Assembly (NCBI GenBank): GCA_051313645.2
Contig: JBNRSN020000024.1
Coordinates: forward strand, 48,918,001 to 48,982,000
Source: Centroscyllium fabricii
Taxonomy: Eukaryota
DNA length: 64,000 bases
Direction: 5' to 3'
Shown here: positions 22,001-59,326 of the stretch, piece after piece
How positions within the stretch are numbered: the first letter of the stretch is position 1
Layout of the letters: each line of letters begins with the position of its first letter
Translations under genes and position numbers: made by a program
Notes under the pieces: generated by a model
What the model was told of the DNA's origin: nothing
Database searches by the model: none
What the model saw: only the letters and a program-made list of their open reading frames with translations

Positions 22001-25000
22001 GTTAGCAGATTACCGATGTCCGGATTAACGATGCCGGACCTGTACCACCTGCAGAGAAAGGATTTGTACACCATCAGGACTGAGCTTAATTGTCTTTTTG
22101 GTTCAGTGCCACAGTGGATTATGCATTGACCACCTACACCTGACTACCTAAGGAAAACAGGACAAAAGGAAGAAATAATTCATGAGAACCTGAAAGATAA
22201 ACAAAACATTTCGTGATTCTTACTTGCTGGCAAACATTTTGTGCACTAACCTGAAATAGGAGATTAAGAAACTCACTGGCCAGAGCACTTTTTACACTCC
22301 ATATCTGATAATCTTCTAGTGTTAAATGTCCCATCTGTCATTGAATTAGAAAAACAAAAGTTTAATTATCACAGAATACAACATTAGATACCAAATGCAC
22401 ATTTGTGTAGACAACATGTACTCTCAGGTTTTACTACTTAGCTTTTGAGAGAGTAATTTTTCTCAATTACCAACTATAGAATACAAACAAATAGGGAGAG
22501 ACAGAGCATATCAAGTCTAATTTTTTCAGTATGACTCCATCAATTTTTTTTTTAAAAGGAATTTCTTTTGAGTGCTCAGAATTTTTGTATAGGTTAACCA
22601 AAATAAAGTTTAAATCGCAGCCCCCCCCCCCCCCCACCACCACCGAGTGAAGAGGGAGGGGGAAATGGAACAAAATTAGAAAGGGTTTTGATGGAATGCT
22701 GTGGTTTAGGAAAAGCATTTGACAATGAGGTCACTTTTGTTAGAAGCTTTGCAACAGTTTCAAATAGATAAAAGCTCGTATTTTGTGTGCATCCATCAAG
22801 ATGAAAGATAAGGACAGTGAAAAGGGAATCACCTTCAACATCATAAACATATTTAGGACTAGATTTTCCCATCGATTAACTACCGAATGGATGTAAAACT
22901 AGCACTTAATTTCAGATATCTGCTCTCAATTAGTGAAACTGTTGCCATTGGGTGATCAAGTACTTGGTGATGGATTTCACTAAAAGCTTCATGGTACATT
23001 TATAACGCAGTATCAGTGCCTCATTTATACAGCCCGACTCTAAATGGAATTCTCCTGCCTAGGAGAGAGCTCTGAGCACATGTGCTTATATACATGCACA
23101 GAGCCTACCTCTCAAGGGAAACAATTAAAAATTGATTGGGTAGAGACAGCAGTGCCTTACCCTCTCAACTTTTAAATCAACTCCAGATGGAGGAAAAATG
23201 CTGAGGGAGATCCAAGCGACCAGATCTGACACTACATTAAAATTATACTCCATGCGGTTTCAGACTGCAGCACTAAGAGACTACTTCCCGCCCCCCCCCC
23301 ACCCAGAGCGCTCACACTGGCACTGATTATTTAACACACACCCCTCAAAAATGACACCCCTGAAGGAAAGATGGATAGAATTGTGGTATGTTGAGGATGG
23401 ACATCATTTGGAGAATGAATACAATCCTAAAGGTAGGTCATTTATGTTTATCCTTCATTCTGCATCGTCTATACACTTGGTGTATACCAAATGAATGCAG
23501 ATTTTGGAGAAGGGGAAGCCTCTACCTAGCAGCCATAACAAAACAGTTGCTTGCTATGGTTAAATTGAGCCAATAATGTTTCCTATACGTATAAGCATTG
23601 TTCAATTTGACAGCCTTTCATATGCTATCAATGGGATTGTGATTAAAATTTACTTGGGAAACACCTATGATCATTAACCTGCCCATGGTCATTGCCTTCT
23701 CAAGATCGTAACAGTGTAGGATGGTCCTGTACATTTGGCTATCCACAGCTTAGCCTTGGCTCTTGCAACATAGAAATTGGACAGTCAAAACTGCTCTATG
23801 TAAGACACATAACACATTGTTCTGTGAGCTTGTACATATTGGAACAATATTCCATTTCTGACCTGTGGGGCAACCAATGAGATAATGGGAGAATATCTTG
23901 ACCCAAAGGAAACATGGAAAACCGAAGCCAGAACAAAGAAAGTTCAATTCACACATTTGAAAAGTGGAAGCATTAACTTAGAATGATTAGAATGCTACAA
24001 AAAAGCCATTTGACCCATTAGGTTTGCACCAGTGCTTTTCTCAAAATAATATCCTTTTTCAAGCAAAAGTAGTTTGTAGAAGACCTCTTTAATTCTGTGA
24101 TTATCTTAAATTTGTGCCTCTGAGTGCCATCTCGCTGATCAATGAAAGCAATGAATGACATTTACCCTGTCATAACCCTTCATAATCTTCAAGACCTCCA
24201 AAAGATTACCCTTCAAGCTTCTCAGCTCATGAAAAAAAGAGCCCTCTCTTCTCAAGTCTCCCTTCATAACTATAACCCTTGATGCCTGCAGGAGCCACAA
24301 GGAAAACAAAATAGATTCAGACAATTGCATCTTTCAAGATAGAGGAAGAGACCTTGACTTTTTTGTGAAACACAGCTTCAAGGAAGAGGCCTGGGAGAGA
24401 TGGTCACAAGCTTGTTGGCCTGACCACTGAAGATGCTGCAGCCACGGTATTTGTGAAGAGGACGGCCCATGAAGCTTTGCGTTGTGTATTTTGCTATTTT
24501 CTGTACTACCATTGTTGTCATTAGTCTTCCAGGTGTACTGAGCCAGCTCATCAGCCATCTCTACATCAAGAGGCTCAGACAGGCAGATTAGACAATCTAC
24601 AACCAAAGTGGGATGGGTCGTCAACTTCATTTGAGCAACAGGCCTGAAGCATCACTAGTTTTGAGATCAGCTGGAGAAGTTACGCCATGAAATACACCTC
24701 TTCATGAAACAGAAGAGTACTGCCAGAACTCCAGTGAATCATAGAAACATAGAAGATAGGAGCAGATAGGTGGGGATTTTCCCGAAGGTGCGGGAACCTG
24801 GCGGGTTTTGGTCAGGTCGGGTTTCTGGCCCACCCAAGGGCCTGGGAACCCCACGTAATTTTCCCTAAATTGAGCAATTAATTCCCCACGTGCGGGGAGC
24901 AACTTCCAATTGCCGGAATCGAGCCAGCAATCAACGTGCTGCAGCTGGGAGCCAGAACTTTGACTGACAGATCTAGGGACTGTCTGTTGTCAGTTTCCAT

Positions 25001-34000: not shown

Positions 34001-37000
34001 TCAAAAATAGTGGCCACTTACCACTAACAGATGAATTTTCTTTGAACCATTGTACAACTGTCCAATCTACTAAAACTTACATTTCTGCCTTTCAGCAAGA
34101 GGTCCTCTACAGCAAGCAGAAAGCCCACAAGAAATTTCTTTGAAGTCTATGTGATTGTCACGATTTTCATCAAAAGCACTGAATAAACCTGTAAAGGATG
34201 CCCAGTAAGTTGACAATACAGTCCATAAGAGGATATTTACTGTAATAACATCTTGCATAGATCACAGTCTCAGATATATTTTTAATAGTATCATCAGTAT
34301 ATGTTTTATCTTCTGACTTTCCATGGTATTTCTCAGATAGAATTCTATATGATATTTGCAGTAAACACTTGCAAATCAATGGGCCCTGACTTCCTGTGCT
34401 CCAGAAGAGCTGCACCCCCACGAAGGGGGGTCCGAAATGCCTCGTGGGGGTGCAGCTCGGGTGATTACCAGAAACGTGAACTTCCTGTGCTGATGGGCAA
34501 GGGGCTTCAGCTTCCTACCCAGGAAGACTTTGAGCTGCAGACTTCCTGTGGCAGCTGCTCAAAATGCGGGTGTATCACGTGGGCAAGTCTCTCTTTTGCT
34601 GCACATATAAAAAGCAGTCTTAAGAGGCTGCAGGCAGCTTTGAGAAGTGAAAAAAACACATTTAAAGTTAAAACAAATTTGATTCCTTTGGAGATATTTG
34701 TCTGTGGTCTTTCAGCTTGTAAATGTGAAGGTTTTTATATATTTTGGTGAAAGTGAAAAAAAACGGGGATTTGAACGCGATGTCAGCAGCTCTGATGGGC
34801 CAACAGAGCGGCTGACATCGCGTTCAAATCCCCGTTTTTTTTCACTTTCACCAAAATATATAAAAACCTTCACATTTACAAGCTGAAAGACCACAGACAA
34901 ATATCTCCAAAGGAATCAATTTTTAAAAAACTTTAAACGTGTTTTTTTCACTGGAGAAAAAAAAACCCCAACATCAGAAAAGGCAGAAACTTAAAAAAAC
35001 CAGCTTCCTAGAAACTGAAAAAACCCAAAAAAAGGTGCTTCCCTACCGGATATTCTTCATCCCGCAGGCTGATTCGGTGCTTTGTGCGGGGGTAAAGCCG
35101 ACCTCAGTGGGCGTGGCTTGCACCCCGCACCAAAAAAAACACGACCCCTCCGAACGAAAAAAACCCGGCTTTTTGCACAGGAAGTTCACGTGACAGAAAA
35201 AAAAAAAATTACCTGCGCGTGCGCCGCGGGTGCACGTCAGCGCGCACCCGCAGCAATCGGGCCACAGGAAGACATGGCCCATTATCAACTAAGAGTAGAT
35301 TTTCACTTTATGGACTTTTGTTAGTTCAAGAGTTTAACCAAATCCACCTTAGACCCTGTTTATAATCATAGAATCATAGAAACTTTACAGTGCGGATAAA
35401 GGCCATTCGGCCCATCCAGTCCGCACCGGCCCAGGAAACTCCTCACTATACTAACCCCATTTGCCCGCACCTGGCCCATAACCCTGTATGTTACGGTCCT
35501 TCATGTGCTGGTCCAAATATTTTTTAAATGTTGCGATGGTTTCTGCCTCCACCACCCTTACAGGCAGGGAGTTCCACACTTCCACCACCCTCTGAGTAAA
35601 GAAATTTCTCCTTACCTCCCCCCTAAACCTCCCCCCCCTAATCTTGAATCTATGTCCCCTAGTACTTGACTCTCCCACCAAGGGAAACAATGCCCCTTTA
35701 TCCACCCTATCGTGTCCTCTCATAATAATCTGTGATTAAAAATGGTGAGTGATCTCAGGATTCCCAAGGCACTGTGCCTGTAGGTGGCGCCGTGATCATA
35801 CGGCTAGATGACTGAGTGATTACAAAGGAAAGCTTATGATTTCATAGAATCCCTACAGTGCAGATAGAGGCCATTTCGGCCCATCGAGCCTGCACTGACA
35901 CATATCCCACCCTATCCCCGTAACCCCAAATATTCAATCACCACTAACACTAAGGGTCAATTTATCATGGCCAATCGACCTAACCCGCACATCTTTGGAC
36001 TGTGGGAGGAAACCGGAGCACCCGGAGGAAACCCACGCAGACACGGGGAGAATGTGCAAACTCCACACAGATAGTCACCCGAGGCCGGATTTGAACCCGG
36101 GCCCCTAGAGCTGAGGCAACAGTGCTAACCACTATGCCGTGCCGCCCATATAAAACTGTTGGTGTTGTGTGACTTCTTACAATTGATTACAAAGGGACAG
36201 CAACAAAAGTTACGTGATGGCCCCAAACTGCACGCTCAATAATTCCTGCGCACCCTCATTAGCTCGTTCAAATAAAATTGCGAATGCTTTCTTCCAGGAA
36301 TCAGACAAGCAAACAAAGTGTTAAGCTACCTCTATGTCTTCAACTGACAACAATATGAATCTGTTGTAGCTAAATACAGCAACACCTTGCATTTATATAG
36401 TGCCTTTAGCGTAGTAAAATGTCCCATGGTGCTTCACAGGAGCGCTACCAAACAACATTTGGCACCATGCCACATAGGGCATATCAGGACAGATGGCCAA
36501 AAGCTTGGTCAAAGAGGTAGGTTTTAAAGGACAGAGAGATACAGAGGCTCAGGGAGGAAATTCCAGAGCTATGGGCCTAGGTAGCTGAAAGCACACCCCC
36601 AGTGGTGGAGATCGAGGATGCTGAGGCCAGAATTGGAGGAGCACAAAGATCTTGGCGGGTTGGAGGGCCGGGGGGGGGGGGGAAAGGGGGGGAAAGAGAG
36701 AAAGGGAGGGGCGAGGATTTGAAAACAAGGATGAGAATTTTAAAATTGGGGCATTGCCAGATCAGGAGGCAATGTATGTCAGTGAACACAGAGGTGCTGG
36801 TTGAACAAGACTTGGTGGGAGTTAGGATGTGGACAGCAGAGTTTGGATGAGCTTAAGTTTACAGAGGGTGCAAGGTGGGAGGCCGGCCAGGGGAGCATTG
36901 GAATAGTCAAGTCTAGAGATATGGATGAGGGTTTTAGCAGCAGATGAGCTGAGGCTGGGGCAAAGACGGGAGATGTTGCGGTGATGGAGAGGATATGGAG

Positions 37001-40000
37001 TAGGATGCTCAGCTCACGATTGCAAGAGTCCATCAGTGAATATTTTGAAGTAGTGCAATTGGGATAAAAATGTGGGGAAAAATAGAAGTGTAGAGTTGAC
37101 AGAATTATCACCGAGACAGAAAGTGACAAAACAGAATACTGGAAATCAGAACGCAGGCCCGCAAAGTGCAATCGTGAGCAGGATTTTGGAATAAGAACAG
37201 CACCAGCCCCCATGGGGCAGAAAATACAGACCGCCTCCTGCCTGTGACCAGAATTAGACACCCCTCCTCCAACTGAGCAGAAATTCTGGCCCCCTTTCCA
37301 CTGTGCAGACAGCATGGCACTGAGCAAGTAAGAAACATGTGAAGCATCTCAAGTAGAAGATTGTAAGCGAGCAAAGCACAATAGTGACTCAGCAATGATG
37401 TTAGTAAGCCAGGATAAGAAACAGCATGAATAGATCCTCATTGAGCAAGATGGCACTTGAAATTGTGACACCCCACCTTGCTCAGAGGAGAAATCTGGGC
37501 GTCTACCTTCCACCAAGCAGAAATCAGTTCACCTCAAGCCCAGTACTGGGGGAGTGCTGCACTATCGGAGGTGCTATCTTTCAGATGAGACATTAAACAG
37601 AGTCTCAGGTGGACATAAAAGATCCCATAGCAATATTCAAAGCAGAGCAGGGGAGTTCTCCCTGTGTCCAGTCCAAAATTTATCCCTCAACCAACATCAC
37701 TAAAATAGATTACCTGATCATTACCTCATTGCTGGTTAGGGGGCCTTGCCGTGTGCGAATTGGCTGGTGTGTTTCCCTAGGTAACAACAGTAACTAGACA
37801 TTAAAGGTACTTCATTCGCTGTAAAGCGCTTTGGGATGGCCTGAGGTCGTGAAAGGTGCTATACAAATGCAAGTTGTTTCTTCTTTCCCGACTCTGATGG
37901 AGGGCAAAGGAGGGCCGTCACACTCTGAGGACAATCCTACCATACAACACATACTTGCCGAGGGCAAAAATAACTTTGCCTTTCCTCCAACTCAGAGGAC
38001 GAATTAAGCCGCTGCCAGCCCCATCCATGAGTGCAAACTCATCCTTCCCATTTTCCCCCTCAAAGAACAAATCCATGTTCCCAGATGAGCTGAAGTTTGT
38101 CTGACTCTTGTATGCCCACTTGGAATTCAGCACCGCCGCCCTCCCCCCACTCCGTGAAGAGTCACTCAAACCCCTCCCAATGAGGAGCAAATTACCTCTC
38201 CCATCCAGAAAAATAACTCATGCCGCTCTAATCCCTCACCCTGAATCAGCTCAGCACCATTCCACACCCTTAATAGAAAACGTACCCGCTGAATGGTCTC
38301 TTCCACCCTCCTTCACACCCCCTGCTCTTTCCTCCACACTGAAGAAATGGACACACGCCCAGTGTCATGGACCCAACCATTGTCCTCTGCTGCTCCCTCT
38401 CCTCCAGCACATGTTCAGCCCTGTCCTTTTCCTCCTCTTCCCCCTGCCCCGCTCCATCTCTCCCACTGATCGTCCTCCCCCAGGTCAAGTGCCTGAATTG
38501 TGTTAGTGTTTCGACATAATGAACAAATAATCCATTACAATTGTAAGCTCATGCACATTTGTCTAGGCTATGTACATCCCAGCAAGAGGGAAAGGTAGGG
38601 GAACCGAAGTCAGGGTTCCTAGGATGACGAGGGAGATAGAGAATATGATGAAACAAATAAAAAAAGGGTGTATGATGCATGTCAGGTGAATTCTTCAAGT
38701 GAGAACCAGGCCAAATACAATACGTTGAGAGGTAAAGTGAAGAGGAAAATAATACTGGCAAAGAGAGAATGAGAATAGAATAGAATGGCAGTTAATATAA
38801 AAGGGAATCCAAAAATCTTCTACCAGCATGTAAATAGTAAGTGGGTAGTAAGAGGCAGGGTCTATTAGGGACAAAGGTGGTGATATATGCTTAGAGGCGC
38901 AGGGCAAGGCTAGAAGTACTTTGCATCGGTGTTTACCAAGGAAGAGGATGCTGACAAAATATCAGTAGAAGCGGCGATGGTAAGAGGTAACTGATGGGAG
39001 AAAATTTGGAAAGGCAGTATGTACTGGAAAGGCAGGATATGCTTAGAGTGGATAAGTCGCCTGGTCCGGATGGCTTGCATCCCAGGTTGCTAAGGGGAGT
39101 GGGGGTGGAGACAGCAGGAGGGCTTGCCCTAATTTTCCAATCTTCCCTAGATGTGGGGAAGGTGCCAGAGGGTTGGAAAGTGGCAAATGTAACACCCTTG
39201 TTCAAGAAAGGGTCCTGGTAACTACAGCCCGGTCAGTTTAACATCAGTGGTGGGTCAAGTTTTAGAAACAATAATCAGGGAAAAAATTAACAGGCACTTG
39301 GAGAGGTTTAAGTTAATTAAGATGAGCCAGCACGGATTTGTAAAAGGCAGATCGTGTTTGACTAATCTAATTGAATTTTTTGATGAAGTAACAGAGAAGG
39401 TTGATGAAGGGACTGCAGCGATGTTGTCTACAAGGATTTTTGGACGGCGTTTGACAATGTACCACATAAAAGGCTGGTTAACAACATTGAAGTTCATGGA
39501 ATAGGAGGGTCAGTGTCAGCTTGGATAAGAAATTGGCTTAAGAGCAGAAAACAGTGAGTTGTGGTAAATGGTTGTTTTTCCAAACAGGAGGATGGTAGAC
39601 AGTGGTGTTCCCCAAGGGTCAGTGCTAGGACCACTGATTTTAGTGATATATAAAATGACTTGGATATTTGAATACAGAGTAAAATTTCAAAACTTGCCAA
39701 TGATACCAAACTTGGAGCTGTGGCAAACAATGAGGATGATACCAATCAACTGCAACAGGATATAGAAAGGCTAGCAGAATGGGCAGACAAGTTGCAGATG
39801 GAATTTAATACAGAGAAGTGTGAGGTGATGCGTTTTGGCAGAAGGGATAGGGAGAGACAGTATAGACTTAATGGCACAGTTCCAAAGAGTGTGCAGGGAC
39901 AGAGGGACCTGGGGGTTCATGTGCATAGCTCTTTGAAGGTGGCAGGATATATTGAGAGTGTGGTTTGCAAAGCATATGGGATCTTGGGCTTCATAAATAG

Positions 40001-40823
40001 AGGTATTGAGTACAACAGCAGGGAAGTTAAGCTGAACCTTTATAAAGCGCTGGTTAGGCCACAACTGGAGTATTACACTTTAGGAAGGATGTGAAGGTCC
40101 TTGAGAGGGTGCAGAGGAGATTTACCAGAATGGTTCCAGGGATGAGGGATTTTAGCTACAAGCTGGGCTTGTTCTCCTTGGAGCAAAGGAGGTTGAGGTG
40201 TACAAGATTATGACGGGTTTGGATAAGGTAGACAAGAAAGGCTGTTCCCATTAGATAATGGTACAAGGTCTCGGGGGGGACAGACTTAAGGTTTTCGGCA
40301 AGAGATACAGGGGAGGATGTGAGAAAGAACTTTTTTACGCAGTGAGTAGTAATGACCTGGAACTCGCTGCCGACGAGGGTGGTGGAAGCGGAGAAGATCA
40401 ATGATTTCAAGGGGAAATTGGATAGGCACTTGAGGGAAATAATAGGCTACGGGGATAGAGCAGGGGAATGAAACTGACTGGATTGATCTACAGAGAGCCG
40501 GCATGGACTTGATGGGCTGAATGACTGTGACTCCAAAGTATCTGAATTCACAATAAAACTAAATGAACCAATTTCGGTCGGAGACCCATATTTTTGAAAG
40601 CATTTGCTGCCACAGTTTGACCTTAATTGGGTTCCAGTCATGTAGTTAACTCCCAGTATATATTATTCTCTCAGTAAACTGCCTCCATTACCTTCACTTA
40701 AAGATGGATGAATGGGTGGAGAAACTAAAGGAACAAATGTTTCCAAATCAAACCGTCCAGTCCTTGACTGAGCCTTAAGCAGCCAGTAGCGTTTCTCAAG
40801 ATCAATTATATCAGATTCTTCCA
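893..40823 (-). CDS. USP32: USP32 (ubiquitin carboxyl-terminal hydrolase 32), partial gene: 11 coding exons (about exons 6-16), EF-hand region and DUSP domain
   Basis: Exons of 132+108+116+63+84+62+103+184+176+141+118 = 1287 nt have canonical AG/GT boundaries and compatible phases. The peptides match USP32 as I recall it (EESDIIDLEKRYWLLKAQSRTGRFDLETF; FDENRDNHIDFKEISCGLSACCRGPLAERQK; WWQQWKEYVKY; VPEPVWRALYHWYG; ELFPRYLLFLRQQPATRTQQSNIWVNMG). Confidence 0.97.
1785..2065 (+). mobile_element. Degenerate tRNA-derived SINE
   Basis: tRNA-like head (GTAGCCTGGTGGTTA...GTGAGTTTATATCCC). The body (ACTGGTTTGCTAATATCCTTCAGGGAAGG...GGTTGACTCTCAATGC) resembles the reverse complement of the 55060-55340 copy. 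Confidence 0.6.
2411..2551 (-). CDS. USP32: USP32 exon ~15 (APTLTLEGGRLKRNPALVRGKDYEIVPEPVWRALYHWYGANLSLPRP)
   Basis: Acceptor ttgtaaag|GCTCCT, donor AGGCCT|gtaagt; 141 nt. Confidence 0.95.
2995..3535 (-). mobile_element. L2-clade LINE fragment (RT region)
   Basis: ORF 3269-3559 has SAAFDTVD...WFLSYLSSRSQ...PEGSILGPLLFLIYMLPL, typical L2/CR1 RT motifs. Confidence 0.8.
3905..4150 (+). mobile_element. HE1/V-SINE, 3' part
   Basis: CAGTCCAAAGATGTACGGGTTAGGTTGATTGG...AAATTGACCCTTAGTG matches the fuller copies at 35843 and 53474; CR1-type tail GGGCCGAATGGCCTACTCCTGCTCC. Confidence 0.8.
4949..5124 (-). CDS. USP32: USP32 exon ~14 (GLYQSSPPGTDACFPRQHNNSDNNGQCFLGANGNILAQLGPQKPGAIDNQLLVMQGSVK)
   Basis: Acceptor atttcag|GTTTAT, donor GTGAAG|gtatgg; 176 nt. 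Confidence 0.95.
5361..7435. mobile_element. Non-autonomous Tc1/mariner-type element, copy 1, carrying a minisatellite
   Basis: TA|CAGGTTGAGCACCGGTAATCCGGCACCC ... GGGTGCCGGATTAACGATGCTCAACCTG|TA; ~28-bp TIR and TA target-site duplication. Confidence 0.88.
5570..7350. repeat. 31-bp GC-rich minisatellite (GGGGAGTGTTCTACCGCGCGCTCCGGGCCCC)n, roughly 57 units
   Basis: Direct inspection; near-perfect core with variant units at both ends. Confidence 0.97.
8160..8343 (-). CDS. USP32: USP32 exon ~13 (EAKPVILEPSSIMNLVK...CFDNISIASEASESTGT)
   Basis: Acceptor ttacag|GAAGCA, donor GCACTG|gtaacg; 184 nt, phase 0-1. Confidence 0.93.
9837..10338. mobile_element. Tc1/mariner-type MITE, copy 2
   Basis: TA|CAGGTTGAGCACCGGTAATTCGGCACC ... 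GGTGCCGTATTAACGGTGCTCAACCTG|TA; internal ~30-bp duplication GTCCCAGGACCGCGAATCTACGTACCTCCC. Confidence 0.88.
11625..12372 (-). mobile_element. CR1 (HER1-like) LINE, 5'-truncated
   Basis: ORF 11894-12316 ([40 protein letters not shown]) followed by a CR1 3' UTR. Confidence 0.9.
13146..15914. mobile_element. Internally deleted PIF/Harbinger-like DNA transposon with a Myb/SANT-like ORF remnant
   Basis: Imperfect TIRs (GGTCGCGCTTTTGCCGGC / GCCGGCAAAATCCAGCCC) and a 3-bp CAT TSD. Frameshifted QRQRAAPRF..EGFRARREGLFP..RPPQETKAAWLQIAEE at ~13427-13630 is Myb/SANT-like. Confidence 0.7.
13990..15055 (-). mobile_element. CR1 LINE nested in the Harbinger-like element
   Basis: ORFs 14072-15024 contain SGVTQGSVLG, FVVYINDLD, ISKFADDTKIGG and RPQLEYCV. 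Confidence 0.9.
16243..16592 (-). mobile_element. CR1 LINE 3' end
   Basis: TAGAAACATAGAAAAATAGGAGCAGGAGTCGGCCATTCAGCCC tail, similar to the 11625 copy. Confidence 0.8.
16628..17340 (+). mobile_element. Rex1/Babar LINE, 5'-truncated, with an uninterrupted C-terminal ORF
   Basis: ORF 16634-17203 (VERVSSFKSLGVHISEDLSW..KKAQQRLYFLRKLK..FYRCTIESILSSCITVWYGNC..LPSGRRYR..FFPRAV); tail GCAATGACAATAAAAC(TTGAA)n. Confidence 0.9.
17467..17569 (-). CDS. USP32: USP32 exon ~12 (GWLERESRHGLQPGHNWFLISVQWWQQWKEYVKY), DUSP domain start
   Basis: Acceptor atctag|TGGATG, donor AAATAT|gtgagt; 103 nt. Confidence 0.95.
17790..18830 (+). mobile_element. Older CR1 LINE fragment
   Basis: IRPHLEYCIQFWSP..LEKVQRRA..RLRGDVIEVYKII with frameshifts. 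Confidence 0.8.
19050..19111 (-). CDS. USP32: USP32 exon ~11 (ICHIVLGLRPATPEEEGQII)
   Basis: Acceptor tctgcag|ATATGC, donor TATCAG|gtgcac; 62 nt, phase 0-2. Confidence 0.94.
19900..20390 (+). mobile_element. CR1-group LINE 3' fragment (second family)
   Basis: MEYSPLAWISAAPTTHKKFDTIQ..AAVYTIYKMH..AGSKSWNSLPNSTVG; homologous to 49070-49560. Confidence 0.8.
20753..20894. mobile_element. Small hAT-type MITE
   Basis: TIR CAAAGTTCCCTGTAA / TTAAAGGGAACATTG; degenerate 8-bp TSD GTGCTTGC/GCGCGTGC; same type as 32194-32355. Confidence 0.55.
21400..21760 (-). mobile_element. Old tRNA-derived SINE
   Basis: Minus-strand B-box-like CTCCCAGGTTTGATCCCTGG near 21715-21735, followed by a degenerate body. 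Confidence 0.45.
21796..22042. mobile_element. Tc1/mariner-type MITE, copy 3 (minimal; inverted relative to copies 1 and 2)
   Basis: TA|CAGGTCGAGCACCGTTAATCTGGCACC ... GTCCGGATTAACGATGCCGGACCTG|TA. Confidence 0.85.
22251..22334 (-). CDS. USP32: USP32 exon ~10 (MGHLTLEDYQIWSVKSALASEFLNLLFQ)
   Basis: Acceptor gacag|ATGGGA, donor TTTCAG|gttagt; 84 nt. Confidence 0.95.
24769..25542. mobile_element. Harbinger-like MITE, family A, copy 1
   Basis: Ends GGTGGGGATTTT / AAAATTCCCCCC, 3-bp ATA TSD; colinear with 28744-29533. Confidence 0.7.
26973..27955. mobile_element. Harbinger-like MITE, family B
   Basis: Perfect 17-bp TIR GGCCCAAAAATTAGGGT / ACCCTAATTTTTGGGCC; 3-bp ATT TSD. Confidence 0.85.
28744..29533. 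mobile_element. Harbinger-like MITE, family A, copy 2
   Basis: GGGGGGATTTTTCCTGGAGGTGCGGGAACCTGGCGGG...; aligns along its length with 24769-25542. Confidence 0.7.
30603..30665 (-). CDS. USP32: USP32 exon ~9 (ELHMGTADIVNHILKKHDTTK)
   Basis: Acceptor tttcctcag|GAATTG, donor ACTAAG|gtgaat; 63 nt, phase 0-0. Confidence 0.93.
31676..31893. repeat. ~215-bp interspersed repeat, copy 1 (direct repeat of 32957-33175)
   Basis: GAATTCAGAGGGTCGAATAGGGATGATTATTTTGCCTGC...GGACTATCTGATGAATGTAAC is closely similar to the second copy. Confidence 0.8.
32194..32355. mobile_element. Small hAT-type MITE
   Basis: TIR CAACGTTCCC / GGGAACACTG; 8-bp TSD CCCACCAC/CCCACCGC. Confidence 0.65.
32640..32755 (-). CDS. 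USP32: USP32 exon ~8 (FCFKVFDTDRDGALSRTELEEMVIALLEVWKDNRTDSIP), EF-hand
   Basis: Acceptor cactag|TTTGTT, donor ATTCCT|gtaagt; 116 nt; EF-hand loop DTDRDGALSRTE. Confidence 0.95.
32957..33175. repeat. ~215-bp interspersed repeat, copy 2, inside a degenerate palindromic element (~32860-33280)
   Basis: Similar to 31676-31893; the flanks GAGAAAAGACAG and CTGTCTTTTCTC are inverted. Confidence 0.75.
33320..33613. repeat. Long inverted repeat (~95-bp arms, ~97-bp spacer), MITE-like
   Basis: TGTTAAAACAGTTCAAGCTGCAGTCGTTAGAGTGTTGCTCTGGAACGGGAATAATAGATCTAAATGATATA versus TATATCATTTAGATCTATTATTCCTGTTCCAGAGTAACACTCTTAACGACTGTAGCTTGAACTGTTTTAACA. Confidence 0.9.
33630..33830 (+). mobile_element. LF-SINE-like ancient SINE, 5' part
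   Basis: GAGGACTGGAT..CTTTCCACCACTGG..CTGGTTCAAATCCAACCCAG..CTCAGTCCAGTTTCTA..GCACTAATTGGCAC resembles the LF-SINE consensus as recalled; a more decayed copy lies near 31075-31240. Confidence 0.55.
34081..34188 (-). CDS. USP32: USP32 exon ~7 (GLFSAFDENRDNHIDFKEISCGLSACCRGPLAERQK), EF-hand
   Basis: Acceptor ctttacag|GTTTAT, donor AGAAAT|gtaagt; 108 nt; EF-hand loop DENRDNHIDFKE. Confidence 0.96.
34381..35280. mobile_element. Harbinger-like MITE with an internal 109-bp perfect inverted repeat
   Basis: TIR GGGCCCTGACTTCCTGTG / CACAGGAAGACATGGCCC; flanks AAT/ATT; inner arms 34679-34787 and 34811-34919. Confidence 0.8.
35365..35727 (-). mobile_element. CR1 LINE 3' end
   Basis: ORF 35451-35723 (TRGHRFKIRGGRFRGEVRRNFFTQRVVEVWNSLP) and an (ATCATAGA)n tail. 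Confidence 0.88.
35843..36147 (-). mobile_element. HE1/V-SINE, full length
   Basis: Minus strand reads GGGCGGCACGGCATAGTGGTTAGCACTG..GGGTTCAAATCCGG (tRNA A/B boxes), then V-domain TGTGTGGAGTTTGCACATTCTCCCCGTGTCTGCGTGGGTTTCCTCCGGGTGCTCCGG and a CR1 tail. Confidence 0.92.
36375..37010 (-). mobile_element. L2 LINE 3' fragment
   Basis: Tail TTGCATTTATATAGTGCCTTT and decayed ORF pieces (FKILILVFKS). Confidence 0.7.
37540..37890 (+). mobile_element. DeuSINE (SacSINE1/AmnSINE1-like)
   Basis: CTTTCAGATGAGACATTAAAC..CAGGTGGACATAAAAGATCCCATAGCA..GAGCAGGGGAGTTCTCCC Deu-domain-like body, then L2 tail GTAAAGCGCTTTGGGATG..GTGAAAGGTGCTATACAAATGCAAG. Confidence 0.8.
38575..40530 (+). mobile_element. CR1 LINE (~2 kb, frameshifted RT)
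   Basis: DKSPGPDGLHPR, WKVANVTPLFKKG, QHGFVKGRSCLTNLIEFF, SGVPQGSVLGP, RPQLEY. Confidence 0.93.
40692..40823 (-). CDS. USP32: USP32 exon ~6 (EESDIIDLEKRYWLLKAQSRTGRFDLETFVPLVSPPIHPSLSE)
   Basis: Acceptor ttcgcag|TGGAAG, donor GTGAAG|gtaatg; 132 nt, phase 1-1. Confidence 0.96.
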
Positions 40824-41364
40824 CTGCGAATAGAAATAAATACATTATCAGATCATATGCACAAGAAGCCTGGGGTTCAGCACAGGAAATTTTAAATAGA
40901 TTGATACAAAACTGCTGATTATAAAACTGACATCAAACGCATCTTTAAAATGTCAGCAACAGTTTTTGTTTTGTTAAATACATGGGACTGCACCATAGCT
41001 TACTCAACTTTATTTACTGAATTCAAACAATAGTTCCTAAATTAAGAATCACAAATACTTACCAAAATGGCTGAAAAAAAGCCTACTTTGGTAAAAATGT
41101 TCTTGTACTTTTTTTTTTGAAACCGAGAACTCATTTGTGACAAACTGCATTTTTATAGTGCCTTTAATGCAAAAGAAATGTCCCAAGACACTTGACAAGC
41201 ATTTTAAAAAATGGACATGGAACCAAAGGAAATATTAGGAGGGCTAACCAAAATGGTTGGTTTTAAGCAAAGTTTTAAAAGTTGGAGAGGTTTAAAGAGG
41301 GAAATCGAGAGTGTGTGGCTGAGGTGCTGTAACAGCAGTAAAAACCTCATTGGAGAGATTTATA

Positions 41365-42056
41365 CAGGTTGAGCACCGTTAATCAGGCAACCGAAAAGCC
41401 GGCAACTTCAGTCATCCGGCACAAATCGCCCCGACTGCCCTGCGCATGCGCAAAATGGCCGCCACGATCGAGGCTTCGGCGAATGATCCGCACATGCGCC
41501 GCCGAATGGTGCGTGCATGCGCAGATCATTTGCCGAAGCCGCAATCACGGCGGCCATTTTGCGCATGCGCAGGGCAGTCGGGGCGAGCAGACAGGAGAGG
41601 ACAGGCGAGAGAGAGCAGCAGAGCCCACTCCAGCCTTTGATCTCGGCACACTCACACTCACCGTCCTGATGGCTTCAGGAGACGCCGACCCCATGGAAGG
41701 CAGCAGCAGCTTCAATAGCGACTCGCCCTCGGGAGGCCGAGAGCTCCGGCGCCTCGGAGTCGCTGGGAGACGAGGAGGACGAGGCCTTCTCCGACCTGTC
41801 GGATGAGGAGCAGATGTCCGACGTCGAGGGTACAACTGCGGGGCGGCCATTTCGCATGATCTGCGCATGCGTCGCCATTCGGGGGCGCATGCACAGATCA
41901 TTCAAAACTTCGCGGCGGCCATTTGCAATGTTCTGCACATGCGCGCTGCCATTTTGAATGGTGCGCGGTGCACTGGCCGGCTTCATTCTCCCGGTTTTTT
42001 CGGTATACCGGCGCAGGTCTAGTCCCGCCCGTGCCAAATTAACGGTGCACAACCTG
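41365..42056. mobile_element. Tc1/mariner-type MITE, copy 4, with exon-like cargo
   Basis: TA|CAGGTTGAGCACCGTTAATCAGGCA ... TGCCAAATTAACGGTGCACAACCTG|TA. Confidence 0.88.
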
Positions 42057-43207
42057 TACAATGATTTGAGGGAATGATGTCACTTCCTAAATCCCTGCCC
42101 ATGTTCAAATTTTACTTTCAGTTCCCAGCCACAGAAGGATGAGAGAATTTACATACAGCATTTATAGAGCTAACGGCAGCAGCTTTTCAATCCCTGCCAA
42201 GCAGTGTAATGATGACTTAATGGCAAGGAAAATTGATCATTACAAATAAAAAAAATTACTGTACAAATATCCCATTTTAGCATTTAAAATTAAAATAGTG
42301 TCACAATTTCTTTTGGAACCATGTTATTTAGTGAGGACGGTGGATTTCAACAAAAAAAGAGGTATTGCAGACTTCAATTGTATAACACAAACATTGCGTA
42401 AACACACAAGTATGAATTAGAAACAAATATGAATGCATTTGCCAAATAATTAGTTTTTAAGCTTTAAATATAGCCTTGAAGACGTTATACTTTACACACT
42501 TATATTTCCTTCAAACATCTGAATAAGAGTTCCAAAGTTAGAAAAAGATTGTACAACTAAATCTTTATAAATAACATAACAGTAAAAATGGCTTATTAAA
42601 AAGTGGCAATCCATGTTGAATCAAATAGCTTTCTCTTGTAGATATGCAACACATTTTGATTCGTTTCTATGTTTTTATATGATTAAATCAGTTTGATTTT
42701 TTCATTTCCACCATAAAATGGTGATTAAAAATGTATTACATGTGTAACACACAAAAGTAATTTGCATTTCTCTAGGGACAATATGCAATTCCAAAAGTGA
42801 CTTAAGAGTTAATAAACTGGTTTCTATTAAGAGGAGAACGTCAGGATGCTTCAATGCAATTTGGAGACAAGCACGGTCTCTTCCACTCCTGTGCAATGAT
42901 GCTGAATTGACTGCAACATCACTAATCTACAGCAGGATCCATCAACTTCAGTATAATAACGTAACATACACCAATATAGTTATGCTCAAGTGAAAGATGT
43001 GTACAGTGGGGGGGGGGGGGGGGGGGAGAAACAAACTTGACACAGGTTGAAAAATAATAATGACATTTCAATTCAATTTGTTCTTTGGTAGTTTTTAAAA
43101 ATCACAAAAATTACAGCATAAAGAACAGAATTAGTGAGTTTTCAAGGCAAGTTTTATAGCAATAGGTTGATACAGGTACTGCATAACGTTATGTAGTCAT
43201 AATTAGT

Positions 43208-43350: not shown

Positions 43351-44506
43351 TAATCCTTTAAATAAGTGTTAACAGAGTACTTGAAACCAACGTAAATGGA
43401 GAAAGAAGTGTGAATAATATAATAAAATGACCTTCACCACACAGGGAAACATTGCATAAACAGAGATCAGATTTATGCCAAGTTAACACTAGTAGAGGAA
43501 TGAATTTAGAGTTAAAATCCCAGATTACAGCAATCGAATCCACTCTGATTTGGCAACGCCGCCTCATAGCGATCACCTAAAGTGCGTGGCTTGAGACTGG
43601 AATAACTGTGCATTACCTCTAGTCTAACAACTTCAGTCAGCACTGCACCTCAGTAACCAATACGTGCAGTGGCACACATTGTGAACTTGCCATACTTGAT
43701 GACTATCCGGGCTGGTATTTTCATGACAACAAAAAACAGATCCAAATACGTGAGGCTGGTTAAAGCAGGTGACACACAATGTGCAGCTCGGTTTATCAAG
43801 CTTTGAGCCTCAGAGTCCACTTCGGGTTTAGAGAGCTGATTTACACTGGTTTTGCCGAACCATGGTGTTCAAATTACTCTGAAGCCCATTGGTGTTATTG
43901 TGCCATTATGTATGCATGATGAGGTCACCATACATAGTACACGGGCACATAACAATTTGTAAAATTTGCAAATGAAAAACATTTTATTCATTATCTTGGA
44001 ATGAGATTGCAAGTTAGTGCCAACTTGTGAGTGTGTCCATATACAAGTTGATATTAACAAAGGACTGGTTTGAAACTGCCCAAATTCATTTCATAAGACT
44101 GTTATGGTTAGTAGACAGAAGAAATTGCAAGGTTTGAACCTAGGTACCAGAGATGTAAATACAATACAATTATTCGCCGTGTCATCCAGCTCCTTTTATG
44201 AAGAATTTGCTTACATGTTCAAATTATGTCATGTGTTGTTTTCCAAAGTATGGCATATGGGAACTAATGATATCCTAGCTTCCAAGGTTTAAGATTATAC
44301 ATGTTTTTATTCATTATTCAAATAATGGATAATAGGTAACTTATACTCAAAGATTTAGGCATGACCGAACTCAAGATACTTTTCCACAAGACACTGTCCA
44401 AGCCTTTAAAAACACAACCCATATAAACTTTTCCACTAAAAACCACAAATTTGCAACAGCTATGAAGGGCATCAGAAATTCATTAATTTCATGAGAGTTT
44501 CAAATA

Positions 44507-44827
44507 CAGGTACACAATCCCTTATCCGCGACTCCGAAAACCGAAAGTTGTTTCGGAGCGTCACATGACCAGTTTTGAAAGCTAATTCATTATAATCCAG
44601 TGATAAAAGTAAAATTAAGATAGTAGCGCATAACAATTTTTTTTTTTTTTTTAATGGACCCGCGGGTCCAATTCCTCCCCGAGCCCACAATCTCCTACCA
44701 TTTCAGCCTGCGCACTGGGCCGCCAACACGGCAATGCGCATGCGATCTGCCCATGCGCACAGGGCACCATTCCGAAAACCGAAGAAATCCGAAACCCAAG
44801 GGTTTCGGATAACGGATTGTGTACCTT
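44507..44827. mobile_element. Tigger/pogo-like MITE
   Basis: TA|CAGGTACACAATCCCTTATCCG ... CGGATAACGGATTGTGTACCTT|TA; a lone matching end also occurs at ~46441-46485. Confidence 0.8.
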
Positions 44828-46111
44828 TATTGCAAAGCATGCAATTTTCTTGTAATATGCCGTACTAACCCTACTTTAAACTGAGTGGGTATGAAAGCTT
44901 TGGTGCAAATGTGCTTACTAAATTATGGTACAGTACACAGGTAAAAAGAAAAGTAGAATGCTGGAGATCTGAAATAAAAACAGAAAATGCTAAAAGCTCC
45001 GATAAGAAGCCCTACCTGAATCTTCCCTACACTGACTAACCTGCTGTACATTTTCTGTATTTTCGATTAACAGTACAATACAAATTTAAGCCTCAGTGCA
45101 TTACCAACTCTATAGATAGATAAACTATTTTAGAAGTTGCATAATTTCTTTTATAATACTTCAGTGTAATTTATTGTATATTGGTAGATGCATTGAAGGA
45201 AATGTGGAAATAATTCATTAATTTTAAATACGACTACATCATAGCAGCAGTTCTTGTGGCTTCACTTAAGAAACACAAAATGTGTTTCTGAAAGATTTCT
45301 ATGGACTCAAGTGAAAATATGACAAGAGACTCAATTTTAACGAGTGGGCGCAAGGGGCTGGCAAACCATCCTGACACCAGCAGCTTGAGGCTCGGGCGAT
45401 GTGAACTCCTGGGGCTCATTTGCATGTCCCCCAGTCATTCACCCACCCAAAACCAGCATTAAGAAGTAGCTGTCCGAGAGCGTAATGCCGAGTCGCAGGA
45501 AGGTGCCGCAGGGGAGCGAAGGAACGGTCCCTGGCATTCAGGTTCATCGTACGGAGCAGGATTTGGGAGAACCTAGAGCAGGGATGGCTGAAACACTCCT
45601 GCTCCTCCACTGGCCCCACAAAAAAAAACCCGAAACAAAATTTAAAATCTAAGCTGTTCGGATATAAATCTTCTGACTCCGACTCTCTTTCCAGTTAGGT
45701 TAATCTGAAGGGAAAGCCATAACCCATTCCCCGCTCAGGCCACTGTTTAAAATAGCAGGCGGGCTTTATTGGAGCCCAATATGCATATTTCTGGCAAGCA
45801 TCCTTCCCCCTTCTCAAAAGGGCAGGTTAAAATAGACAACTGCGTGAAGAAAGCGGAATTTCGGTAGGTAAAATCCAATGGCAATTTTAATTGCCCGTCT
45901 GTCCAGGTTCAAGACTGATTATTGATAGATTTGTTAGGCGAATGCATCATAGGATATGAAGCAAAGGCAGGAAATGGAGTTGAATGGGCTGAATGGCCTA
46001 CTCCTGGTTCCTATGAAATAAACATAATATTTGCTACATTTCAGGTGGCACTACAGTATTAACATGCAATGAAATGTGGATGAAAGAGAAGTTGACGTAG
46101 GGGGAAACAAT

Positions 46112-46762
46112 GGGCCTGAATTTGTGTTCAGAGGCTTCCCGCGGGCAGATGCCTCCGAACCGCAATAAATCTATGCACCTACCCGACGGTCCTGGATCCA
46201 CAGAGACCCGCGCTCCTGGGCCTCGACGCCTAGGCCTGTGTGGAGGCCCACCTATCCCAGGGGCTCATGCGATTCGCAAGCGCCCCTGGGATCGCGTGGG
46301 CCACCCAATCAGAAAGGGGATTCCCATTATGCTAAAGGGGATTCTACTTGCATATGGAATCCCCACAAGCTTATTAGGAATCACCCAAAAAACATGTGTA
46401 CACAAGCTTGAATAATTTTTTTCTTAAATAAATTGAAGAAAAACTTCGGTTTTTGGAGTTGCGGATAAGGGATTGTGTACCTGTATTTATTTTCACCCTT
46501 ACACCTTTACCAGGCATAAGAGTTTCATGAGCATTCGCTGGGCAAGAGTTGGAGCCCAACTCCCCGCCAGCAGATGTCCATTCCCCGGGGATGCAGAGAT
46601 CCTTGACAGATCCTCCGCATCTCCGGGAAATGGACATCCGCTGGCGAAGATTCTTGACAGATTGCAAGTTCCGGGTTTTCGTGCCTGTGCAGCCCATGTG
46701 TAAACCCGGAACTTGCAAGGCACTTATGCGTACACAGTCATAGGCCACGGAAAATCTGGGCC
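46112..46762. mobile_element. Harbinger-like MITE
   Basis: Ends GGGCCTGAATTT / AAAATCTGGGCC with a GC-rich interior. Confidence 0.55.
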
Positions 46763-49689: not shown

Positions 49690-50940
49690 TTCAAAATGGA
49701 CTTCTCCATCTCCATTTCTGGGAATAGGCTGTTCACCAATGGCTACTCTAAGCCCACTGACTTCCACAGCTTCCTCGGCAACAACTTCCACCCACCCCGC
49801 TTCCTGTAAGGACTCTATTCCATTCTCCCAGTTTCTCCATCTCCGTCGCATCTGTTCAGATAATGCCACATTTCACACCACTGCTTCAGACGTCTTCCTT
49901 TTTCAATTAAGGATTCACTTCCACTGTGGTTGACAGATCCCTTGATCATGACCGTCCCATTTCCAGTACTTCTGCCCTGTCCTCACCCCCTCTCCCCTCA
50001 CCTCACGACAACAGGGTCCCCCTTTGTCCTCATTTCCACCTCACCAGCCTCCACAATCAACAGATCATCCTCCGCCATTTCCACCTCCAACAGTGCGATG
50101 CCACCACCAAACACATCTTCTCCTCCCCCTTCAGCATTCCAACGTGACCGTTCCCTCCGCGACTCCCTGGTCCACTCATCAAATCACCCCGAACACCCGC
50201 TCTCCTTCCTACGGCACCTTCACATAATAATGCAGGAGATGCAACACTGCTCTTTCACCATCTCCCTTCCCACCATTCAGTACCCCAAGCACTCCTGCCA
50301 AGTGAAACAAGTGTTTTGCCTGTACTTCTTCAAACCTGGTGCACTGTATTCGTTGCTCCTCTAAATTGGGGAGACCAAACGCAGATTGGGGGATCGCTTT
50401 GCTGAGCACCTCTGCAACAGTGACCCCGAGCTTCCGGGCGTTTGCCACTTTAATTCTCCATCCCACTCGGAGCTCTCTGCAATTTGCCGCCTACGCTGTT
50501 CCAACAAAGTTCAAGGAACGGCACCTCATCTTTCGATTAGGCACTTGCGGTCTCAACGTCAACTTCAACAACTTTAGATCATAACCACCACTCCCACTTT
50601 CTCGGGTGCTGATAATGGTTCTGCTGTTATCATTTACACCTCTTTTGGATTCACCTTTTGTTTCTTGTTGATCATTACCACTCCCTTTTGCCTTGCACCA
50701 TCATCCCTTCTGTCAATTCATCACTCCTGCCTTCCACCCCATCACAGAATGTTCCCTTTGCTCTTTCCTCCATTGCCCCCACTAGATCCCCGGGACCTCT
50801 GTATTTGCTTCAAAACCGTTCAATCTCCAACTTCTTCCAGTTGTGATGAAAGGTCATCCACCTACAATGTGAACTCTGTTTCTCTCTCCACAGATGCAGT
50901 CTGACCTGCTGAGTATTTCCAGCATTTTCCGTTTTAATTC
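49690..50940 (+). mobile_element. Penelope-like retroelement (degenerate RT thumb, GIY-YIG and pLTR)
   Basis: HPASCKDSIPFSQFLHLRRICSD; CIRCS..GETKRRLGDRFAEHL; decayed hammerhead/pLTR GTTGTGATGAAAGGTCATCCACCT..ACAGATGCAGTCTGACCTGCTGAG. Confidence 0.85.
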
Positions 50941-51545
50941 AAAATGGATCAAAGGACTTGATATAAGCTTTATAGATCAAGTGAGTGCAGTTGATCATGA
51001 CTAGAAAGGAACAACTAATTCTACTTGTTGCAAAGTTTTGCATCTTCAGACATGTCTTCTTAGATGTTGTCTTTTCTCTAGGCTACCACTTCCACACCCC
51101 ATTTCCTCGGTCTTCTTCATTTTTCCTTTATTTTCTTTCTCTTTGCTTATCCATTCCTCATTTTCTATTATTTTCTTCCTCCACTCCTTTGTCTTATTTA
51201 TACCACGATTTTATCTTTCAGGGAAGGAGAATATCAAAAGGAAACAGAACCCGGGGATGAAGGAAGAGGGAACAGAAAATGATCAAAAGGTGAAGGAATG
51301 AGACTGCGAGGACAAAAGAACATGAAAGAAATGGAGACCTCTTGTGACAGAGGAGGATGAGGAAATCAAAAAGAAACCAAGGGCTTGGAGGAAGAGCAAT
51401 TAAAAGGCAGCAGTTACCTCAGACACAAAGGAAAAGTGAAATGAGGAGCAGACATGGGGACATGAGTTAAAACAGAATTATATTTTACAGCTACACCATG
51501 CTATTTTTAAATCCTCCTCATAGTTCACTTACTCAAAGCAGTATT

Positions 51546-52657: not shown

Positions 52658-52760
52658 GTTCTGACAAAGGGTCACCGACCTGAAACGTTAACTCTGTTTC
52701 TCTCTTCACAGATTCTGCCCTGACCTGCTGAGTATCTCCAGCATTTTCTGTTTTGATTGA
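52658..52760 (+). mobile_element. Penelope pLTR fragment with a mutated hammerhead core
   Basis: GTT-CTGACAA-AGGGTC-ACC-GACCT-GAAA-CGTT-AAC (core G8 changed to A), then GATTCTGCCCTGACCTGCTGAG. Confidence 0.7.
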
Positions 52761-55920: not shown

Positions 55921-56972
55921 GATAGGCTGTTGTTCAAGCATAGAACCCACTAAAATTGTCCACATACATTTGTGTGCTTCAACTCCACCTACAGCACAGC
56001 AACAACTGAGACACTTGGCTGAGAAACTGCTGTCATCAGTCTAAATAGCGACCGTGGCACAATTCCAATGGCATTGAAATAGTAAGTCTCATGTCACACG
56101 AATAGAATTAACAGCCACTCAACATTATGTTTCATTTCCCTTGTGCAACAAACCTGAACAAACTGCAGCCCTCATGTGTCGTAGAAATTCTGCACTCAGA
56201 AAAATGGTATATTACACAGATAACCAAGCGGCATTTTCTTATACTGCAATGTGAATTGAATCTCATTCGTAGCAAAATCAATGGTACACTTCAGGACGTA
56301 CTATTACTTGCAGGGGCCCGATGTATATTCACTCACCTGCAGGTGCTATTCTTTCAGGCAGGCAGCAGTACAGGCATACCATAATCTAACCCGCACCGAC
56401 GATACTCGGCCAAGATTTATTATGCTCACCATACTCAAAACAAAATGTCCTTCAAAACAAGCTTAATAAAGACACCGATCAGCCAACAACAGAAGACCAT
56501 AAATCTAAGAAGTGCATTCAATTTATACAAATTAAATCTTTGCCACTTCTACAGCAAAATGAGGCATTCCAGCATGATGCCCAGAAGGTTACATGGAGAA
56601 AATCCGTCTGTTCAAAATACAGCTTCAAGAATTAAGAGGATAACAAGACAGGCCGATAATTAGATTGCACAAGCAATTTCTCTAATTGGCGTATGATGTC
56701 AAAACCGACTTTAAGGGACAAAAAAAGCCACTAATCAAACTTGCACAAGAGGATACTCATTTTGTCAGATTACATTAGCTGCTTGTAGACCTTGACTGTT
56801 GTATACATGTAACTGAGCATCTTTACAAATTATTTAGAAACTTTAGAATAGGGTGACCATACATCCCCGTTTTCCGGGGACAGTCCCCAGATGAGGTACT
56901 GTGTCCCTGGGAAAATAATGTCCCCGGATCACAAAATTCATCCACAAAATAGCCCAACTTTTAATTTCTCGT

Positions 56973-57992
56973 AATAACAACAGAAAATGCTGGAAAAACT
57001 CAGCGATAAAGGGAACCACCCGGAACGTTGACTCCTATTTCTCTCCACGGATGCTGCCTGAACTGCTGAGTTTTTCCAGCATTTTCTGTTGTTATTTCGG
57101 ATTTCCAGCATGCGCTCAAGGACGGCAGGATGCGGGAGGTCGGTCGGTCGCTGGCAGTCGGGAGTGAGCGGGGAGTTGGAGGTTCGGGGCTGCCGGCATG
57201 GCGGGCTGAGAGGTAGGTGCTAAGCCTTCGGACACGGCTCCTAGGTTTCGGAGCTCAGTGGATTTAGGGGATCTGGCAGAGCGTCAGGGCAAGGGGTGGG
57301 CCTCGGGCCTTCTGACGCGGTTCCCGGACCCAGGAGTTCAGGAGAATCTGGGGGACTGTGGAACAGGAAGCAGAAAAATCGGAACATTGAACTTTGAGAG
57401 CAGGAGAGGCCGGAGCGGTGCGGGAATGAATTGAAGATGGCGGCGCGCATAGACGCAGCAGCTTTGCGTCTCCCGAGATAATGCTGTCCGCTGGTTGTTC
57501 TGGATCTGTTCGCTCGGAGGGGATGGTATGGTCGGCGTGGTAGTGCACCGGGGTCAGCGCAACGGAATTGTCGGAGCACCGATGTGTCTGCGATCGGAGC
57601 ATCGGGGGCGCAACGAGGCCATCATGGTCGGAGTGCCGAGGCCTTGAGGTCGGAGTGTTCGGAGCCGGAGCCTGCGTGGTCACCGAGGTCGGAGCCTGCA
57701 TGGTTGGAGCGCCGGGGCCTTGGTCGCTGCGCCGGAGCCTGCGCGGTTGGAGCGCCGGGGCCTGTGTGGTCACCGGGGTCGGCGTGGTCATAGCGCCGGA
57801 GGTCGGCGAGTTCGGAGCGCCGGAGCCTGCATCTTCAGAGCAACAGCGTCGTCATGGAATAGAACAGACTGGGACTTCAGCAGAGGACATTTTAATATCT
57901 GCATTGTTTCTTGGGAGTTTGCAAGAATGCATTTCATGGCATTGTGTTTGTTCACTCTGCAATGACAATAAATTGAATTGAATTGAATTGAA
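56973..57992 (+). mobile_element. Composite non-autonomous retroposon (pLTR hairpin + GC-rich VNTR-like body + Rex1/Babar tail)
   Basis: 14-bp direct repeat TTTTAATTTCTCGT at 56959-56972 and 57993-58006; 3' end CTCTGCAATGACAATAAA(TTGAA)n as in the LINE at 17300-17340. Confidence 0.8.
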
Positions 57993-58588
57993 TTTTAATT
58001 TCTCGTGTTGGATTATGATGTACAACACACATACACTGCGCCGTTCACCCTAACTTGATTACACATTTCTTTCTCGGGCGCCCCATCAATTACAGCCACC
58101 GTGAACTCTGACTGGTTGCGAGGCCAGCCCTGAAGCGGGCTCAGTGGTTTAAGGGGCTGGTCTATTAGTTAGCATCCACGTCAATCGAGCACCGAGGGGT
58201 GGGCTCGTGCCACTAGCATGTTCGGCTGCGCTCCCGACACAGCCTCGCTTGACAACCAAACCCCCCATTTTCTTTCCCCCCCTCCTCTTCTTTTGCTATG
58301 GGGCGCACCAGTTTGAATCGCAGGTGGTTGCAAGCCGATTAGTCGGAGGGCTTCTGATTTAGTCATCTCTTCCACCCGCCCACCCACACAATTCAAAATG
58401 GTCGCAATTCGGAAGCCGATTGGATGCTCGGTCGGTGACAGTTACGCCCAATGATTCCATTATATGACAAAATATATTTTGAAAACATAGGTTGTCGACA
58501 TGAGCACAGCGGAAACAAAAGAACAGGTGTCAGCAGTGTAGACAGAGGCTATGAAAAACTGATGCTTCTGAACAGTGTTATTGTATTA

Positions 58589-59285: not shown

Positions 59286-59326
59286 TATTTATAAACAGTG
59301 TCTGAATGCACGTCAATAGTGTGACG

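Follow-up and report, generated by a model that had tools for sequence, protein, structure and literature searches.

Which host gene supplied the foreign segment that lies inside a small transposon of this DNA, and by what route was the segment taken up? Five TA-flanked copies of one element with terminal inverted repeats (TIRs) are found in the window (the whole stretch of 64,000 nucleotides that was analysed), and an earlier note had claimed that the fourth copy encloses the beginning of a host coding sequence, with an acidic N-terminus. The copies are as follows.

5359-7437: copy 1, TA-flanked
9835-10340: copy 2, TA-flanked
21794-22044: copy 3, TA-flanked
41363..42058, plus strand: copy 4, a non-autonomous TIR element with TA at 41363-41364 and 42057-42058
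58587-59287: copy 5, TA-flanked

The TIR ends of copy 4 agree at 21 of 24 nucleotides, with the TA intact at both ends; the right end is common to all five copies, that of copy 4 carrying several private changes. The element folds strongly (z = -11.8). Neither a transposase nor any Pfam family was found at E ≤ 0.1 in the four element frames scanned, the coding cargo of copies 1, 2 and 5 likewise gave no Pfam family (four frames scanned), and the window gave no match to a structured RNA family in Rfam at the gathering score. Because a TA target duplication, short TIRs and several copies were observed and no transposase was found, the carrier is, by its structural features, a non-autonomous Tc1/mariner-type element (MITE). 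The TA flanks and the TIR start of copy 4 presumably resemble those of pogo/Tigger-type MITEs (Tigger4/Zombi). The five copies have five different interiors: that of copy 1 is a 31-bp minisatellite of about 54 units, that of copy 5 is a hairpin repeat which recurs on its own at 50844-50954, 52660-52752 and 56970-57102, and part of copy 2 resembles 46243-46308. Judged from these interiors, the element family seems prone to taking fillers. A perfect 12-nt palindrome is located at 20801-20812, 41441-41452, 41560-41571 and 58665-58676, three of the four sites in the window being inside copies 4 and 5; in 100 shuffles the motif did not turn up once, so that by chance no site would be expected. We take it to be an NRF1-type motif, and as such a putative one that could drive sense transcription. 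A second family of small TA-flanked elements with its own terminal repeat was observed at 44505-44829 and about 46445-46488; the inverted repeat at 44502-46488 had been considered as a long coding element and was rejected by eye, its ends belonging to separate small elements. A near-perfect inverted repeat of 153 nt with a 1-nt spacer (94% complementary) lies at 34646-34952.

The interior of copy 4 was resolved into the following parts, all on the plus strand.

41365..41530, plus strand: left part of copy 4, identical to copy 5 at 137 of 158 aligned columns
41482-41530, plus strand: short internal hairpin, predicted by folding, which closes the left part
41531..41586, plus strand: fold-back of 56 nt that repeats 41426-41481 in inverted orientation and has no counterpart in copy 5
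41587..41668, plus strand: leader of 82 nt, free of ATG and contiguous with the DDX60 ATG, without match to the element or the window
41669..41731, plus strand: DDX60 codons 1-21, sharing 18 of 21 residues with Heptranchias DDX60
41731..41733, plus strand: one-base frameshift, an extra G in a GGG run
41733..41831, plus strand: DDX60 codons 22-54 in the second frame, truncated at the 3' junction
41669..41806, plus strand: present open reading frame of 45 aa, 21 from DDX60 and then out of frame to the stop
41832..42056, plus strand: right part of copy 4, with further palindromes and the right TIR, collinear with copy 5

The foreign segment within copy 4 spans 41587-41831 (245 nt), and is composed of the 82-nt leader and codons 1-54 of one of two elasmobranch DDX60 paralogues. 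The earlier note had placed it at 41587..41845; the start stands, and the end was moved to about 41831, since the element is collinear with copy 5 from 41832. The features that the note had described are all present in the sequence, namely the ATG-free, UTR-like leader, the start codon at 41669, both acidic peptides (in two frames one base apart) and the G/C-rich third codon positions (46 of 54 codons, with 34 at position 1 and 26 at position 2). We infer that the leader, from its place directly before the ATG, is DDX60 5' UTR. As the note had also stated, the segment is absent from the other four copies (0/4). Comparison of the segment with the rest of the 64-kb window gave matches of 21 nt at most, and none with an E value below 0.15. 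A local parent was not found in the window either: TBLASTN of 15 DDX60 proteins detected only the fragment site (others at E 0.08 or worse), a profile search with the orthologues likewise detected no second DDX60 site, and there is no DDX60 match beyond about residue 60.

For the identification of the donor, a read-through query (54 residues, with X at the break) was used, and its sole match among 20 candidates was DDX60 of Heptranchias perlo (E = 9.3e-8; 39/55 identical, residues 1-55). A search with residues 1-400 of Heptranchias DDX60 gave two DDX60 groups in sharks and rays, A and B, which were assigned by us from scores and N-termini; the groups differ in their N-termini, and several species hold both. 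In the literature searched, as far as its text was available, no discussion of two elasmobranch DDX60 groups was found. The match was evaluated with 2,000 composition-preserving shuffles per orthologue, a test that did without four models of Callorhinchus and three of group B in which the N-terminus is missing. The fragment matches all 11 group-A orthologues of sharks and rays (z = 10.5-19.4; 0/2000 shuffles reached the real score for each of the 11). With the 10 proteins of group B no match was seen (z not above 1.2), and with DDX60 of five other vertebrates a weak one (z = 0.7-3.2). Paralogue B was accordingly rejected as donor. The codons of fragment and DDX60 are collinear (54 vs 55), and a parent is identified at the protein level in 11 species. 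Identity is greatest with Heptranchias perlo (40/54) and then Pristiophorus japonicus (37/51), which would point to a squalomorph shark; in a short tree (62 columns) the fragment was placed nearest to Heptranchias and Pristiophorus, within no supported small clade. The outcome that had been named in advance as contrary to a host origin, a match to a transposase or a TE open reading frame, was looked for and did not occur in the protein-family and representative searches; a transposase or piggyBac-like acidic N-terminus was rejected by the DDX60 match together with the lack of any TE protein family. On these protein matches the donor gene of the transposon-borne fragment is DDX60, so that a host coding start inside the transposon, as proposed, is borne out by 11 of 11 orthologues. 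DDX60 is an antiviral helicase gene; its product is a co-sensor of RIG-I, and the gene was lost in teleosts, according to the available part of a review (PMC11466643).

The opposite direction, in which a TE-derived segment was exonised into the N-terminus of shark DDX60, was also considered. The weak scores of the five other vertebrates given above would fit it, as they show little conservation of the acidic N-terminus beyond elasmobranchs. However, that N-terminus is intact across the 11 sharks and rays and broken here, the DDX60 proteins of turtle, platypus and lungfish open with the same four residues, and there is neither a sister copy with the segment nor a TE protein match. Exonisation is therefore regarded as extremely improbable; because of the intact N-terminus in sharks and rays and the four shared opening residues, the direction was taken to be from host to transposon.

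The state of the copy was then read against the orthologues. In a scan of break positions (codons 15-30, against the 11 orthologues) the best score was obtained at codons 20-21, which fits the extra G at 41731-41733 and confirms the one-G frameshift that had been suspected near 41732. Among 20 columns invariant in the 11 orthologues, the fragment keeps 17 and changes three, whereas 0-2 are changed in orthologues left out one at a time; one of the three changed residues sits in the acidic run, a placement that depends on the alignment. The 45-aa reading frame gave no Pfam family and no match among 1.84 billion representatives (weak evidence with so short a query), and on the latter result, with the same reservation as to query length, a protein from the frameshifted frame was rejected; the read-through peptide gave one sub-threshold DUF match. 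The alignment score with the orthologues stops rising after codon 54. Two further suggestions of the earlier note found no support, namely that a splice donor (GAGG/GTACAA) follows the coding sequence and that the segment is a complete first exon. The proposed donor, AGG|GTACAA, has 4 of 9 positions in common with the donor consensus, and from base +3 to base +6 it consists of element sequence. At the 11 exon ends of USP32, the gene in which the element lies, the GT that fits best agrees at 5-8 of 9 positions, and 52% of the plus-strand GTs in the window reach 4 or more. A native donor at 41830 was thus rejected as weak and partly element-derived. The orthologues continue for about 40 residues past the fragment end, to the point where the Callorhinchus models join, and we infer that this join is the real DDX60 exon end. 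Because the donor is weak and half element sequence and the orthologues run on for these residues, the DDX60 exon in the fragment was probably cut short. The fragment corresponds to 3% of an 1800-aa protein, without the helicase or any other Pfam domain; with its frame broken and helicase domains lacking, it does not qualify as a functional DDX60 copy, and it is probably a non-functional, now decaying pseudo-fragment.

The junctions bear on the mechanism. Copy 4 runs collinear with copy 5 up to, and again after, a 301-nt insert (the 56-nt fold-back plus the 245-nt DDX60 piece), which stands against about 4 nt in copy 5. The fold-back ends exactly at the start of the leader, that is, at the DDX60 junction; it is identical to the left arm of copy 4 itself at 51 of 56 positions (91%) and to copy 5 at 45 of 56. 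Folded as DNA, 41426-41586 forms a single hairpin of -88.9 kcal/mol. The point of the switch coincides with the base of the short hairpin that copies 4 and 5 share. Note that the ancestral state was set by copy 5 alone, as copy 3 does not polarise the fold-back. The replacement of about 4 nt at a hairpin by a fold-back and a DDX60 piece points to template-switch repair, as read from these junctions. In such a course, the element would break or stall replication at the internal hairpin, the free 3' end would fold back and copy 56 nt of its own left arm, the template would then switch to the GC-rich 5' end of DDX60, of which 245 nt would be copied, and synthesis would rejoin the element about 4 nt from the point of departure. 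Our main reading is that carrier copy 4 with its DDX60 piece is a Pack-TIR, gap-filled by template switching, to which we give a probability of about 0.8.

Two other sources of such a junction were weighed. Long palindromes can generate fold-back chimeras, and the strong folding of the element would favour an artefact of assembly or library at the hairpin. The arms of the fold-back, however, differ at 5 of 56 sites, four of which are transitions in or beside CpG contexts, and the DDX60 piece has a frameshift and changed invariant residues. Because a chimera would copy both the arms and the DDX60 piece exactly, we consider an artefact highly implausible; the five arm mismatches also indicate that the event is not brand new. 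In the second, the template for repair of the break would have been the 5' end of a DDX60 mRNA or cDNA instead of genomic DNA. Such a template would suit a piece that begins 82 nt before the ATG, plausibly with the whole 5' UTR, and that holds no recognisable intron sequence, and human DDX60 has been placed in an interferon-inducible network tied to LINE-1 ORF1p (PMC9839780, in the portion available). On the other hand, neither poly(A) nor a duplication was found at the filler ends and nothing but the extreme 5' end was copied, features that set the piece apart from a LINE retrocopy; the fold-back fits switching between DNA templates. An RNA template is thus judged unlikely, and gap filling from DNA is retained.

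The insertion lies in USP32, in an intron of more than 23 kb, with the DDX60 piece antisense to the gene. Between 40823 and about 891 the minus strand carries eleven USP32 exons (residues 191-620), each 85-100% identical to Heptranchias USP32; residues 1-190 are absent from the window. Copy 4 sits 540 nt upstream of the acceptor of the following exon.

40692..40823, minus strand: nearest USP32 exon, about residues 191-235

Fragments at 11894-12409, 14345-15033, 16631-17203, 18100-18486 and 39193-40094 in USP32 introns are, we assume, similar to the C-terminus of a LINE reverse transcriptase. In Heptranchias, DDX60 and USP32 are on different contigs (198.6 vs 41.7 Mb), and the same holds for DDX60 and USP32 in Heterodontus (287.9 vs 65.2 Mb), where the USP32 entry stands for a 34-member cluster. 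In the elephant shark, DDX60 adjoins SPOCK3 (PMC11466643, in the part of the review available). From these different contigs and the SPOCK3 neighbourhood it follows that the capture probably crossed chromosomes.

This distance matters for the question of whether the piece was captured where it now stands. Animal Pack-TIRs were surveyed by Tan et al. (2021, PMC8277862), and we cite the survey here and below from the parts of it at hand. In most single-copy cases the parent is close by (at 15 kb or less in 56.9%); the multicopy cases are four (1.4%), all of them distal, and three of the five interchromosomal frog cases are multicopy (PMC8277862). Copy 4 could accordingly be a member of a multicopy, DDX60-carrying subfamily, in which the capture came first and the jump later (a FoSTeST-like route). 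A parent that is apparently on another chromosome, the consistently distal position of multicopy Pack-TIRs with their share of the interchromosomal frog cases, and the intactness of both element ends and of the TA flanks speak for this order. The rarity of multicopy cases in the survey speaks against it, as does the absence of the DDX60 piece from the sister copies in the window; moreover, the private changes at the right end of copy 4, set beside arms that are 91% alike, weakly suggest that the fold-back arose after the insertion. Capture before the jump therefore keeps an appreciable, if minor, share of our expectation, and we lean slightly towards capture in place at the USP32 intron site.

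The copy was also compared with the definition used in that survey. There, a Pack-TIR is an internal sequence between both termini of one TIR element, 100-5000 bp long and not TE-derived, with a unique parental locus (at least 90% nucleotide identity, length ratio 80-120%) that has no TE within 100 bp, by which segmental duplication is excluded; intron-less retrocopies are excluded as well (PMC8277862). Copy 4 has its own pair of TIRs (21/24), TA flanks and collinearity with copy 5 on both sides; its 245-nt filler matches DDX60 and no TE protein family; and a small internal deletion is present at the breakpoints (about 4 nt of 700, in comparison with one copy, copy 5). The tendency towards a nearby parent was not observed, there being no other DDX60 in the 64-kb window and different contigs in Heptranchias. 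The likeness to animal Pack-TIRs (PMC8277862, as excerpted) consists in a short host filler taken from an exon (245 nt here, median 224), a small deletion at breakpoints inside the element, as in gap-filled cases, and a TcMariner-type carrier (115 of 370 survey cases); the frog hAT-N8_XT also took a piece of 5' UTR (CAPSL, 291 bp). The differences are the cartilaginous fish host, the parent apparently on another chromosome, the accompanying fold-back, and the inclusion of a start codon and 54 codons in the piece. Exon capture by animal DNA transposons is rare (about two per 10,000 elements, 13.4% exonic), and the elephant shark, the one cartilaginous fish in the survey, scored 0 (PMC8277862, same sections). 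Plant Pack-MULEs share with copy 4 a GC-rich 5' gene fragment between TIRs (PMC8277862, likewise). They differ from it in their duplications of 9-10 bp and long TIRs, against a 2-bp TA duplication and short TIRs here; small RNAs with possible cross-talk to the donor are described in plants (PMC8277862; bioRxiv 10.1101/777037, as far as their text was available), whereas neither such small RNAs nor amplification is evidenced here. In the literature searched, mostly open-access, no report of a captured host gene in a DNA transposon of a cartilaginous fish was found. The case is most likely an instance of an already known kind, the Pack-TIR, with a named donor and readable junctions.

In the present gene context, the DDX60 copy would be transcribed passively and antisense within the USP32 pre-mRNA and then spliced out. 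A candidate cryptic exon was found on the antisense strand of the DDX60 piece.

41662..41762, minus strand: candidate cryptic exon of 101 nt, with a pyrimidine-rich acceptor and an ACG|GTGAGT donor

Its acceptor derives from the antisense acidic codons and its strong donor lies within the leader; if used, it would shift the frame, so that a stop codon would be met in the next USP32 exon, five codons from its start. Dinucleotide shuffling of the filler produced an acceptor/donor pair of this kind 28 times in 3000 trials; with shuffling confined to the leader the figure was 347 of 3000, and, of 261 tiles of the window, two contained such a pair. The rule for the pair was fixed after the site had been seen, and none of the 11 real USP32 exons passes it. 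The predicted exon is thus taken as a lead only. A regulatory effect of the captured piece, either by antisense or small RNA directed at DDX60 or by the 101-nt poison exon in USP32, is doubtful in our estimation. If it were true, copy 4 would belong to a mobile subfamily through which the 5' end of an antiviral gene is spread, and an antisense, hairpin-flanked transcript from the USP32 intron would yield small or antisense RNA on DDX60, as a vertebrate version of the donor-gene cross-talk of plants; or, with the poison exon, USP32 would be tuned by nonsense-mediated decay.

The fragment would matter more if it were multicopy, a source of DDX60 small RNAs, or spliced into USP32. The fold-back beside the filler directly records a way in which captures may take place at internal palindromes, and, with five interiors among five copies in 64 kb, the element family would be well suited to counting captures genome-wide in sharks.
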